DNA from: Candidatus Thorarchaeota archaeon
GTDB lineage: Archaea; Asgardarchaeota; Thorarchaeia; Thorarchaeales; Thorarchaeaceae
Direction: 5' to 3'
Length of the DNA stretch: 37,891 bases
Assembly: GCA_048884785.1 (NCBI GenBank)
Contig: JBHLQM010000028.1
Location: 1 to 37,891 of the forward strand
Below the pieces are notes generated by a model. The model made no database searches and was not told the origin of the DNA. It worked only from the letters and a program-made list of their open reading frames with translations. Below are positions 1,207-5,379 of this stretch, piece by piece (position 1 is the first letter of the stretch; every line of letters starts with the position of its first letter). Made by a program: the position numbers and the translations under genes.

Positions 1207-1314
1207 GCTATTCCGCCTAGATTGGTCGATATCATTTATCACCTTTAAGCCAAATGGTCTGTACAATTCGCAGTCTGCAAACCTTGATTAGATGGGGGTA
1301 TGGTATGCAGATGC

Positions 1315-1983
1315 ATGAAGAATTCGGACAGTCCATCAATTCTGGTTATTTGTGCCCATCCTGATGACGAATGTATTGGAGCCGGCGGCACAATAGCGGT
1401 GCATTCCTCGATGGGAATTCCAGTTGATGTTCAATGTCTGACGGCAAATCAAATCCGAAAAAAAGAGCTTGAGGCAGCCTGCAAAGAACTTGGAGTGAGG
1501 AAAGTCTATTCCAGTATCAGGGATGATTTTGCATTAGATATGTCACTCACCAAGGAGGTTGCGAACGTGATACTTGAGTCACGGCCAGCCATTATTATTA
1601 CACATTCCCCTGATGACTACAATCAAAATCATGTCATTTGTTGTCAGATTGTAGAACAAGCGGCAGAGTGGGCTTCTCATAAAACTGTCTATGAAAACGC
1701 TCATCGCGTTGAGCGCATCTACCATATGGAAATTAATACGCTCTTCTCTCATCCAAATGTGATGATGGATATCTCCGGTTCATATGACCGCGCTCTGAGT
1801 GCTCTTCTCAAGTATAAAACGCAGATAGCAAAATCTGATGGGTTTTACACTAAGCTATATGATGCAAGAACGCGCCTACGAGGGGTTCAAAGTTCATGCG
1901 GACGTGCTGAAGCGTTTACAGTAAAAGTGCCCTATCATGCAGGACCGTTCTATGAGAAAAACAGTGCAAAGAGCCTATTCTGA
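1315..1983 (+). CDS. PIG-L/LmbE family de-N-acetylase, BshB-like
   Basis: AHPDDE..GAGGT metal motif, R..E...AC..LG and C-terminal AEAF. Divergent from bshA. Start is 1315 or 1300. Confidence 0.8.
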   Translation: MKNSDSPSILVICAHPDDECIGAGGTIAVHSSMGIPVDVQCLTANQIRKKELEAACKELGVRKVYSSIRDDFALDMSLTKEVANVILESRPAIIITHSPDDYNQNHVICCQIVEQAAEWASHKTVYENAHRVERIYHMEINTLFSHPNVMMDISGSYDRALSALLKYKTQIAKSDGFYTKLYDARTRLRGVQSSCGRAEAFTVKVPYHAGPFYEKNSAKSLF

Positions 1984-2370
1984 AGTTCCCGTTGCACCAT
2001 CGGCCTTTGTTCGTCTTGCAGCAAGAAGGGCTTTCAACTCTCCCATCATACTCATTCCACCGCCTGCTGGCTTTGGAGAGGGGGCCTTTGCAACAGGCGC
2101 TGATGCCATCCCGGGAGCAGCATCTGCTGCAGCAGATGGTCCTACAGTGGCTCCAGAAGCTATTCGATTAGCAAGAGAGTCCATCCTGGATTCTAGTGCG
2201 CCTATCCTTGAGTCAAGATCTTCAATATTCTTTTCCAGGCTTCCAAAAGCGTCGATGAGCTTGCCAGTAATTATGCTTACAACCTCACCAAGTTGCCTCA
2301 GCTTTTCCTCGGTAGGGTCTTTGAGTGCCCACTCAAACTCTTCCATAATGAAATCTTCATCATCGCCCAT
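1975..2370 (-). CDS. Small coiled-coil protein with an acidic N-terminus, Ala/Pro linker and C-terminal VASP-FAB/WH2-like helix
   Basis: 131 aa. Regular 4-3 heptad L45/I49/L52/I56/L59/M63/L66/I70. C-terminal GGGMSMMGELKALLAARRTKA. Confidence 0.75.
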   Translation of the reverse strand: MGDDEDFIMEEFEWALKDPTEEKLRQLGEVVSIITGKLIDAFGSLEKNIEDLDSRIGALESRMDSLANRIASGATVGPSAAADAAPGMASAPVAKAPSPKPAGGGMSMMGELKALLAARRTKADGATGTSE

Positions 2371-2441
2371 TTCTTGCGCCTCTGGTCATCTAGATTTTGA
2401 AGTTTTTTTGCTATAAAGCTTGTCTGCATTAGCGATTTTCC

Positions 2442-3833
2442 TCATGAGATTGTCACGAGTGCCTGAACAACCTTTTGTGAGATTTCGAGAATTTCCCTCA
2501 CTCTTTCATCCGAGCTCGCTTCACAAGTTATTCTAATTACTGGTTCTGTTCCGGATGGGCGAACCAAAACCCAACCATCTGAGAGTGATATTCCCAATCC
2601 ATCCACAGTTATGACCTCTCTGACATCACTCATTGCTTTTGGCAATTCCTGCTCGAGTGATTTCATTACTTGATTTTTCTTGTCACTTGAAACAGGAATC
2701 TTTGTCTTAAGAAGTGGATATGTTGGGATTTCAGCAATGAGTTCCCCGAATGACCTGTTTGTCTTGGCCATCAGTTCAAGAACCTTACAAGCGGCTAAGA
2801 ATGGTTCAGGTGCTAGATGGAATTCGGGAAACAAGAAAACACCGCATGCTTCCCCCCCATGAACAGCTTTCAGTTCATTGAGTTTAATGGCTACCTGAAT
2901 ATCTCCAACTGGTGTTCTAATAGTATTGCCCCCTGCTTTCTTCACAACCTCATCGAGTACTTTTGAGCTATCCACGGTGGTCACAATTGTCTTTGAAGAG
3001 CCTGCTGTCAGGATCTCTTTTGCAAATAATGCGATTGTCCTATCTCCCCTCACAACCTCGCCGGTTTCAGAAACAAAAACCACTCTATCGGAATCACCAT
3101 CATGCGCGATACCAAGGTCTGCCGCTGTTTCTTTCACCATACTAATCAGATCGCCAAGCGTCGCTTCCTCGGGTTCGGATTTTCTTCCTGGAAAGTGACC
3201 ATCAAGTTGCCCGTTTATTGTAATCACCTTGCACCCAAGTCTCTGCATGAGATATGGCGTCAAGACACAAGCCGCTCCATTTCCGGGATCAACGACCACT
3301 TTGAAATTCTTGCCCTCTATGGCGGCTCTATCGCAATTCTCCAGAAGGGATTGAATATGCTTCTCCACCGCCGTTTCGAGGTGACTAACAGAACCAATCG
3401 CATCCCAGTTTGCAACTTGGAACTCTTCCGAGTAGAAAATTCTCTCAAGCTCTGCTTCCATCTCAGGTGTGTATCCCATTGAGTTGGAGTTCCAGAACTT
3501 AACACCTGTGTACTCTGGAGGATTATGTGAGGCAGTGACCATAACTCCTGCGGAGAATGGTGGCTCTGATGCCGCTACTGTGAACGCTAGAGTAGGTGTA
3601 GGGATGATACCTACATCAACAACATCTATTCCTGTTGATACAATCCCTGCGGTGAGTGCGTCTGACACCATGCGTCCAGTAGTTCTTGCATCCCGACCAA
3701 TTACAACTGTACCTTTCTTCAGATATGTGCCCAGAGTCTTCCCTAGCTTCAATGCCATGTCCAGATTGAATTCTGTGCCGTAGACCTTTCTCACTCCAGT
3801 AGTTCCAAAGAGTTTTCCTGCCATGATGCTCAC
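2442..3833 (-). CDS. glmM: Phosphoglucosamine mutase / phosphomannomutase (alpha-D-phosphohexomutase)
   Basis: LFGTTGVR, TASHNP phosphoserine loop, DGDSDR metal loop, GGEA, VRPSGTEP. Substrate specificity is uncertain. Confidence 0.85.
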   Translation of the reverse strand: MSIMAGKLFGTTGVRKVYGTEFNLDMALKLGKTLGTYLKKGTVVIGRDARTTGRMVSDALTAGIVSTGIDVVDVGIIPTPTLAFTVAASEPPFSAGVMVTASHNPPEYTGVKFWNSNSMGYTPEMEAELERIFYSEEFQVANWDAIGSVSHLETAVEKHIQSLLENCDRAAIEGKNFKVVVDPGNGAACVLTPYLMQRLGCKVITINGQLDGHFPGRKSEPEEATLGDLISMVKETAADLGIAHDGDSDRVVFVSETGEVVRGDRTIALFAKEILTAGSSKTIVTTVDSSKVLDEVVKKAGGNTIRTPVGDIQVAIKLNELKAVHGGEACGVFLFPEFHLAPEPFLAACKVLELMAKTNRSFGELIAEIPTYPLLKTKIPVSSDKKNQVMKSLEQELPKAMSDVREVITVDGLGISLSDGWVLVRPSGTEPVIRITCEASSDERVREILEISQKVVQALVTIS

Positions 3834-4724: not shown

Positions 4725-4830
4725 CAACTGAAATCTAAATCAAACGAAACCTTATTAGAGCCGTAGGACTTATCGCAGAATAAGATACCGAACCGCCTAC
4801 TGCGGTGAACCTTCGAAGGATGAAATGCAA

Positions 4831-5379
4831 ATGAGCAGCAGCTATGATTATCTCTTTAAGGTCGTCGTACTGGGAGAGGGCGCAGTAGGCAAGACAGCAG
4901 TCGTCACCCGATTCTCCCACGGTTTCTTTCGCACCGACTATAAGACGACAATTGGCAGCCAGTTTGCTGTGAAGAATATCGACGTTAGCACAAGCGCGGG
5001 TGACAGGGTTACTGTGAAGCTGCAGATTTGGGATGTGGCAGGACAGTCCCGATTTCAGATTCTGAGGCCAATGTACTACAGAGGTTCAAGTGGTGGCGTG
5101 CTTGTCTATGATGTAAGTCGAAGACGAACATTCATTGTACTTGAGGAATGGCTGGCTGAGCTTGAGAAAGCAGTCGGCAAGAAGATACCATTAGTGCTAG
5201 TAGCAAACAAGACCGATCTTCCTGACCGTGTGGTAGAGCCAGCTGAAGGGCGGGAGTTTGCAGATAGGCATGAGATGCCCTATATTGAGTCATCTGCAAA
5301 GACTGGTGAGGGCATTGTGGATATATTTGATCGACTTGGAAGAACCCTTGTGGAAAAGCGTGCTTCAAGTGATGAATGA
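4831..5379 (+). CDS. Rab-like small GTPase (Ras superfamily, eukaryotic signature protein)
   Basis: YDYLFKVVVLGEGAVGKT (G1), TIG (G2), WDVAGQ (G3), NKTD (G4), SSAK (G5), plus RabF-like IGSQF, KLQIW, RFQIL, YYRGS and LVYDV. No C-terminal Cys. Confidence 0.93.
   Translation: MSSSYDYLFKVVVLGEGAVGKTAVVTRFSHGFFRTDYKTTIGSQFAVKNIDVSTSAGDRVTVKLQIWDVAGQSRFQILRPMYYRGSSGGVLVYDVSRRRTFIVLEEWLAELEKAVGKKIPLVLVANKTDLPDRVVEPAEGREFADRHEMPYIESSAKTGEGIVDIFDRLGRTLVEKRASSDE

Follow-up and report, generated by a model that had tools for sequence, protein, structure and literature searches.

Introduction

Asgard archaea possess a eukaryote-like actin as well as profilins and gelsolins, and the latter two are the only regulators of Asgard actin named in the literature. 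Up to late 2025 the machinery of filament nucleation and elongation in these archaea was regarded as still undiscovered, and no native polyproline ligand of their profilins had been found. Elsewhere, oligomerised actin assembly factors with WH2 or proline-rich elements comprise WASP, WAVE and WASH, MIM and IRSp53, and the bacterial mimics BimA, VopL and TARP. Human VASP carries a G-actin-binding site (GAB, residues 223-239), an F-actin-binding site (FAB, residues 259-278) and a tetramerising coil (residues 343-380; PMC10340426), and arcadin-2 binds the hydrophobic groove of crenactin with its last 17 residues (PMC5173319). Proteomes of L. ossiferum and co-immunoprecipitation (co-IP) data for its Lokiactin have also been reported (bioRxiv 10.1101/2025.11.30.690169).

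In the present study a gene of a Candidatus Thorarchaeota archaeon was analyzed against this background. The window, i.e. the whole stretch of 37,891 nucleotides of contig JBHLQM010000028.1, had previously been interpreted from its letters only, and a 131-aa protein encoded in it was taken as a candidate Ena/VASP- or WASH-like actin regulator with an acidic, tryptophan-bearing head, a coiled coil and a FAB-like helix (the sequence-only reading). It was our interest to compare this protein and its relatives with the systems named above with regard to architecture, conservation, distribution and likely partner.

Results

Gene and surroundings

The 131 codons and their stop form a complete ORF on the minus strand. 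This is a genuine gene, kept among relatives and preceded by a conserved TATA box of its own; length and quoted sequences were given correctly in the sequence-only reading. The following features were located in the window:

1975 to 2370, minus strand: family ORF, 131 aa, with 331 homologues, present in 80 of the 85 genomes of the window's own family (whole-genome searches)
2412 to 2417, minus strand: TATA box TTTATA, 42-47 nt upstream of the ATG, inside a conserved ACAAxxTTTATAGC block
2379 to 2383, minus strand: Shine-Dalgarno-like AGAGG, 9-13 nt upstream of the ATG

In 27 of 30 Thor-family loci the ACAAxxTTTATAGC block lies some 45 nt ahead of the start, and hence the family gene has its own promoter; a GAGG or GGGG element recurs at the distance of AGAGG from the ATG across the Thor loci (30 loci compared). 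The order of a glmM-like gene, the family gene and a convergent PIG-L-type gene was kept in every one of the 30 Thor-family loci examined. In the window the convergent gene, PIG-L/BshB-like (1300-1983, plus strand), overlaps the 3' end of the family ORF by 9 nt (1975-1983). A plus-strand ORF at 1937-2416 (159 aa) was rejected as an antisense low-complexity shadow frame of the family gene.

A Ras/Rab-family small GTPase is encoded at 4825-5379 (plus strand), 2.4 kb from the family gene, and L042 and L044 likewise have related GTPase genes in the vicinity of theirs; given the many such genes in Asgard genomes, the proximity may be due to chance. When longer homologues were sought, a single one was found, the 472-aa database protein P0266, in which the C-terminal half of a phosphoglucomutase is joined to the family protein, probably as a read-through or gene-calling artefact of the conserved pair with the glmM-family gene.

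Protein architecture

AlphaFold2 (AF2), run with a family alignment of 46 sequences, predicted a helix at aa 2-17, a second at 21-71, disorder at 72-105 and a last helix at 106-126, with a mean pLDDT of 70 and values of 82-95 in the long helix. Translated to the window, the parts are:

2320 to 2367, minus strand: N-terminal acidic helix predicted by AF2, aa 2-17, DDEDFIMEEFEWALK, followed by the invariant D18-P19 turn
2158 to 2310, minus strand: long helix and heptad coiled coil, aa 21-71 (helix from AF2, register read from the sequence)
2056 to 2157, minus strand: linker of Ala/Pro/Gly type, aa 72-105, predicted to be disordered (at aa 79-105 the pLDDT is under 50)
1993 to 2055, minus strand: C-terminal helix predicted by AF2, aa 106-126 (pLDDT about 77 in its core)
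2005 to 2049, minus strand: near-invariant FAB-like motif MMGELKALLAARRTK, aa 108-122 (invariant columns, profile match to the VASP FAB)

The motif pointed out in the sequence-only reading, GGGMSMMGELKALLAARRTKA, occupies aa 103-123 (nt 2002-2064), exactly where it had been placed. The clean heptad pattern described there was recovered as well, although its extent of aa ~45-70 was too short, since the predicted helix spans 21-71. Positions a are I49, I56, M63 and I70 and positions d are L45, L52, L59 and L66, and the 3-4 spacing of hydrophobic residues, as read from the sequence, is unbroken from L24 to I70, which amounts to a coiled coil of about 50 residues with the conserved start LGEVVSIITxKL. 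Weak Pfam matches of the protein and its fellow members were to coiled-coil families only. By the classical rule from GCN4 variants, Ile at a together with Leu at d favours a parallel dimer; the pattern found here suggests such a dimer, and in this sense we infer the oligomeric state of the family protein.

The linker of the 131-aa protein contains no run of at least three Pro and no GPPPPP-type profilin-binding motif, and both its length and its sequence vary among homologues. The overall layout proposed before, a coiled coil displaying a conserved helix on a flexible arm, is supported.

Family and conservation

Homologues of similar length amounted to 331 proteins, mostly labelled Thorarchaeota, none of them with a Pfam domain or an informative name. 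NCBIfam and Pfam gave no informative domain for the 131-aa protein, their matches being coiled-coil noise, sequence and profile searches of the PDB retrieved no relative, and matches in the ESM Atlas were Asgard hypothetical clusters only. An exhaustive search of cluster representatives yielded only about a dozen full-length clusters, and the family is hence narrow. It is undescribed, as no description was found in the literature. Its members are recognized by an N-terminal helix, an LGEVV-type coiled coil, a variable spacer and the tail [IM]-[MQ]-G-E-L-K-x-L-[LF]-A-x-R, all of which are present in the 131-aa protein.

The conservation of these features goes far above what chance would give. 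Among 24 Thor-type homologues F12, W14, A15, L16, D18 and P19 are invariant, and so are M109, G110, E111, L112, K113, L115, L116, A117, A118, R119 and K122 of the tail. The invariant blocks of these 24 members read FEWALKDP...LGEVVSIITxKL in the N-terminal part and MGELKxLLAARRxK in the tail; the coiled-coil surface and the linker vary. Across 46 diverse Asgard members L112 is invariant and E111, K113, L115 and R119 are conserved in at least 90%, and W14 is replaced by N, S or F in Asgard lineages outside the Thor order. The tail is the most widely conserved part, with E111, K113 and R119 kept from Thor-type to Loki-type to f14-type lineages, and this conservation of polar residues would fit a protein interface.

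A profile of the tail matched 262 of 400 Asgard genomes, or 73 of the 90 high-quality ones, and lineages without such a match still hold diverged members, e.g. f14 with the tail AQMQGELQSFLARRRA. Orthologues throughout the Asgard archaea, which all possess actin, keep the motif emphasized in the sequence-only reading. The motif occurs once in the window's genome; up to four paralogues of the family were counted in one genome.

Loki-type and other relatives

The four-part layout was kept in 20 Loki-type and other loci. In Loki-type relatives the Ala/Pro spacer is replaced by polyproline (GPPPPP-type) tracts such as GGPPGGPPPPPGGPPGG, which directly precede the tail, and the tail itself reads RPASPVSLRGAIMGELKxLFAKRK. 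The member encoded in the single-contig genome G138 (6.0 Mb) has three GxPPPPPGR repeats and an Asp run at its end. Gene neighbourhoods are of housekeeping type: Thor types have glmM-like and PIG-L genes, Loki types Elf1, Pelota-like and radical SAM genes. The 20 Loki-type loci are syntenic, sharing Elf1-like, Pelota-like and radical SAM genes as well as a 206-aa helical protein, and no actin gene was found near the family gene in any of these 20 loci.

The all-helical 206-aa protein lies directly beside the family gene at 13 loci in two Asgard families (L037:4176-4796, plus; L036:5563-6186, minus; L032:4290-4964, minus), preceding it in one of two arrangements and following it in the other; no Pfam family was found for it, and a search with one query detected no homologue in the window's genome. 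Also adjoining the family gene in Loki-type genomes is an Elf1-type zinc-ribbon protein with an acidic helical extension of 120 residues ending in GFLEF:

L054:741-1361, plus strand: Elf1-type neighbour, with counterparts in L034, L040 and L036

The f8 lineage has long diverged forms (L112:1450-2022, plus; L113:1378-2274, plus), the arm of which is Gly/Pro-rich with repeats such as GFANDIASAASGLKP and SANDIQGIRAGLTKV. These repeats appeared WH2- or GAB-like by eye and were discarded as such, Pfam WH2 giving no match. A beta-eliminating lyase gene precedes both long forms. In genome G128 (L105:907-3059) the family gene (2694-3059, minus) is about 1 kb away from a gene for a 284-aa gelsolin-domain protein (907-1761, minus), with a 112-aa gene in between, a single case.

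Likeness to the VASP F-actin-binding site

The FAB motif quoted in the sequence-only reading was accurate, corresponding to human VASP 259-278 (PMC10340426). A weighted profile of 27 tails was used for comparison. In this comparison, which had been chosen in the sequence-only reading after the likeness was seen, the human VASP FAB scored 23.6 bits. Its shuffles averaged 1.3 +/- 3.2 bits, with no case in 20,000 as high as 23.6, so that by this profile test the claimed resemblance exceeds chance. The best non-family score among 1.1 million windows of the ORFs of the window's genome was 13.5 bits, and by extrapolation about 0.002 windows would be expected at 23.6 bits or more in this background. 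A genuine f14 tail that had been left out of the profile scored 27.3 bits; with FAB at 23.6 and the background at 13.5, the FAB lies within the range of real family tails. The VASP GAB as a control did no better against the profile than its own shuffles (p 0.86). The WASH string quoted alongside FAB was not found in the literature and fell, at 12.4 bits, below the best background window. With FAB as a single BLOSUM62 query the 131-aa protein was the best match of the proteome (42 vs 35 for the next), a non-significant result, as 3 of 40 shuffled motifs gave an equally good best proteome match. What the profile comparison shows is a likeness of motif between tail and VASP FAB, not homology or function.

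Occurrence of the tail on other proteins

Second matches of the tail profile were found inside ORFs of 412-413 aa, the middle of which is an Arf/Gtr1-RagA-type GTPase according to Pfam. Compared by hhalign, their last 90 residues match the family profile over the stretch that begins at the KDP turn and includes the tail (probability 95%, E 3.6e-8). GTPases of this kind are encoded at:

L061:349-1590, plus strand; L062:307-1545, plus strand; L083:262-1599, plus strand; L090:367-1569, plus strand: Arf/RagA-like GTPases of 400-446 aa (413 aa for that of L061) with the same coiled coil, spacer and tail

Besides the 412-413-aa ORFs, the tail is borne by two more GTPases, an LRR protein (with a partial copy), a protein with three copies and a 338-aa long form. 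The three-copy protein (L089:1315-2208, minus; 298 aa) has its N-terminal, internal and C-terminal copies arranged around a Cys-rich segment. As coiled coil and tail also stand at the C-terminus of Arf/RagA-like GTPases, the tail may be seen as a portable docking motif, and we infer that it is a protein-docking site. It was absent from the gelsolin-domain ORFs of six genomes (five Loki-type ones and the window's own) and from the 38.10-kDa Arf GTPase (L066) brought down with Lokiactin.

Actin system and Lokiactin co-precipitation

In the window's genome a single actin gene was found, together with a tandem pair of profilin-like genes and three ORFs with gelsolin domains; a second actin-family gene was not found in it. 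ARPC4 was not found there either, and since the ARPC4 control query matched nowhere, this does not prove absence. The actin gene is located at:

L031:1495-2631, minus strand: the genome's own actin

The profilin-like genes lie in tandem at L052:1447-1839 (plus, 130 aa) and 1945-2310 (plus, 121 aa) on contig C9 of G000, and Pfam gives a profilin score for only one of the two, a weak one that stays under the cut-off (21 bits).

Locus tags of the L. ossiferum data were matched to G138. The two-domain gelsolins are placed as would be expected of tags 02589 and 04136, an ORF of 38.10 kDa fits tag 04696, the Arf that was co-precipitated, and the gene immediately upstream of the family gene, which is Elf1-like, has the monoisotopic mass given for tag 02218 (24.01 kDa). 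From this gene order and the 24.01-kDa neighbour the family gene of G138 is most probably tag 02219. GNAMCCOK_02219, the orthologue so assigned, was quantified in 16 of 16 proteome columns of L. ossiferum; its mean log2 of 18.47 ranks it within about the first 500 entries. Actin, a profilin and five gelsolin-type proteins were enriched in the Lokiactin co-IP (bioRxiv 10.1101/2025.11.30.690169), and GNAMCCOK_02219 was absent among the co-IP rows listed (log2 ratio above about -1.06). This absence speaks mildly against a stable complex with actin; contacts of low affinity or on the filament side could be lost, and 841 rows lie outside the part listed. The Elf1-like neighbour's probable tag, 02218, was modestly enriched with Lokiactin (log2 1.36, adjusted p 0.034).

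Membership in known families

No EVH1 domain of Pfam or NCBIfam and no VASP_tetra match was obtained for the 131-aa protein or the 46 members, WH2 (PF02205) had no match at E up to 10 in any of the 46, and no WH2-bearing PDB chain was found with sequence or profile. The sequence has no LKKT/V-like element as in the G-actin-binding site (WH2-like, KLRK), and a C-terminal acidic-Trp feature of VCA type is absent from the 131-aa protein, whose Trp is N-terminal and predicted to be helical. As EVH1, GAB, WH2 and a C-terminal acidic-Trp feature are missing and the Trp near the N-terminus is confined to the Thor order, membership in Ena/VASP or WASH fails.

Two other motifs were tried and rejected. 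Where the PIP box demands Q-x-x-[LIM]-x-x-[FY]-[FY], the protein reads M-G-E-L-K-A-L-L, and the Q-G-E-L-K-x-L-F of some lineages is still without the two aromatics; the MIM1 pattern (D/E)xxLxxRLxxL(K/R) does not fit the tail.

Discussion

With the gene, its family, the architecture, the conservation, the portability of the tail and its motif-level likeness to FAB established, a mechanism can be proposed. Chains would be paired by the N-terminal helix together with the heptad coiled coil of 50 residues, giving a small oligomeric adaptor, from which each chain would extend a disordered arm of about 35 residues ending in the near-invariant helix, and this helix would serve as docking motif for a highly conserved cellular partner. 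Asgard actin is tentatively put forward as the most likely single partner. The helix would then act in the manner of the FAB of Ena/VASP, or of the helix with which arcadin-2 ends and contacts crenactin. With two or more of these helices tethered to one adaptor, filaments would be tied together, or to whatever is bound by the N-terminal part, and the GPPPPP arm of Loki types could also recruit profilin-actin. The polyproline of Loki types, the genes for actin, profilin-like and gelsolin-domain proteins, the precedent of arcadin-2 and the FAB match were counted for actin; counted against it were the absence from the co-IP rows listed, the non-significant outcome with FAB as a single query, the lack of any PDB, WH2 or VASP match, the lack of polyproline and GAB in the Thor protein, the housekeeping neighbourhood and the tail-less gelsolins of six genomes.

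It is conceivable, if somewhat unlikely, that the same tethered-helix adaptor docks with its tail on a conserved hub other than actin, for instance a regulator or effector shared with Arf/RagA-like GTPases, a trafficking or ESCRT component, or PCNA via a PIP-box-like reading ([QM]-x-E-L-x-x-L-[FL], then basic residues). The tail is common to Arf/RagA-like GTPases, an LRR protein and the three-copy protein, none of which is an actin-binding family, and from its presence on GTPases and other scaffolds an unnamed hub partner was judged about as likely as actin. The housekeeping neighbourhood and an orthologue not enriched with Lokiactin among the co-IP rows listed point the same way, as does the Q-G-E-L-K-x-L-F of several lineages, which comes near Qxx[LIM]xx[FY][FY]. 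However, no search identified a candidate partner, and the polyproline tracts and the FAB-level profile match would be left unexplained. As to PCNA in particular, most members have M and not Q, and L-L or L-F and not two aromatics, and AF2 gives an alpha helix of 20 residues where a PIP box would form a short 3-10 turn; MIM1, as stated above, does not fit.

Quite improbable is a role of the tail as basic amphipathic membrane anchor, comparable to the unlipidated polybasic C-termini of some small GTPases, by which the protein would become a membrane-tethered coiled coil. The position at the extreme C-terminus behind a flexible spacer, found also on GTPases without lipid-anchor motifs, is that of a Ras-superfamily anchor, and a net charge of +3 to +4 as well as a HeliQuest-type discriminant of 1.2-1.7 would agree with it. 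Yet the hydrophobic moment is low (0.18 here, 0.30-0.40 in relatives, 0.33 in the VASP FAB), the Glu is almost invariant, the Thor-type motif has no aromatic residue, and a strict conservation of polar residues is unusual for lipid-binding helices. Both the low moment and the conserved specific polar residues speak for binding to a protein and not to lipid.

The stronger form of the sequence-only reading, in which an acidic-Trp head would activate Arp2/3 as in WASH/WASP-like nucleation-promoting factors, or the protein would be a true relative of Ena/VASP, is largely refuted and very improbable. An acidic stretch with a Trp invariant in Thor-type members and a FAB-like tail do exist, but this Trp sits in the predicted N-terminal helix and not in a C-terminal disordered acidic tail, and gives way to N, S or F in other lineages. 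One actin-family gene and no ARPC4 were found in the genome (the ARPC4 control being uninformative), the quoted WASH string scores below background, and the protein has no WH2, EVH1, GAB or VASP-type tetramerisation domain and a domain order opposite to VASP.

If Asgard actin is the partner of the tethered helix, the family might further be the missing factor of Asgard actin assembly or bundling, i.e. a minimal Ena/VASP-like machine composed of an oligomer, FAB-like helices, profilin-recruiting Loki arms and GTPases coupled to actin. This wider reading is unlikely; if it were true, the EVH2 design would predate eukaryotes or would have been reinvented from the same short motif. If the partner is not actin, the tail would still mark a hub interaction common to the Arf/RagA-like GTPases. 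The family is small, abundant and nearly pan-Asgard and is a candidate for probing whether regulated actin assembly predates eukaryotes, for which a small target, the 131-aa protein or a 20-residue peptide, suffices.

Comparison with known systems

With the EVH2 region of VASP the family shares the combination of an oligomerising coiled coil, a Gly-run, an amphipathic helix and an Arg cluster, and with FAB the same register, [LIM]-M-x-E-[ML]-x-x-[ML]-[LF]-A-x-R-R; the polyproline tracts of Loki-type relatives parallel the proline-rich region of VASP. In contrast to VASP, the family protein has only 131 aa, is without EVH1 and a GAB/WH2 site, and carries an N-terminal coiled coil of ordinary heptad type; the domain order is opposite, and sequence statistics give no homology.

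In the WH2 and proline-rich factors the design principle is the same: chains oligomerise, a proline-rich part follows, and a short helix that binds actin stands at the C-terminus or close to it. The family tail, in contrast, has no LKKT/V element and no PF02205 match in the 46 members, and a central or acidic region is absent.

Arcadin-2 of Pyrobaculum (PDB 5LY3; PMC5173319), like ParR on ParM, has a C-terminal helix beyond a separate body, and this helix is the only actin-contacting element and binds a hydrophobic groove. No sequence relation to arcadin-2 is detectable, however, the contact of arcadin-2 relies on a Trp, and its gene clusters next to crenactin in Thermoproteales, whereas the family gene is not next to actin.

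The C-terminal modules of the Asgard Arf/RagA-like GTPases share a truly homologous coiled coil, spacer and tail with the family; there they are appended to a GTPase domain, whereas the family protein stands alone with its own N-terminal helix.
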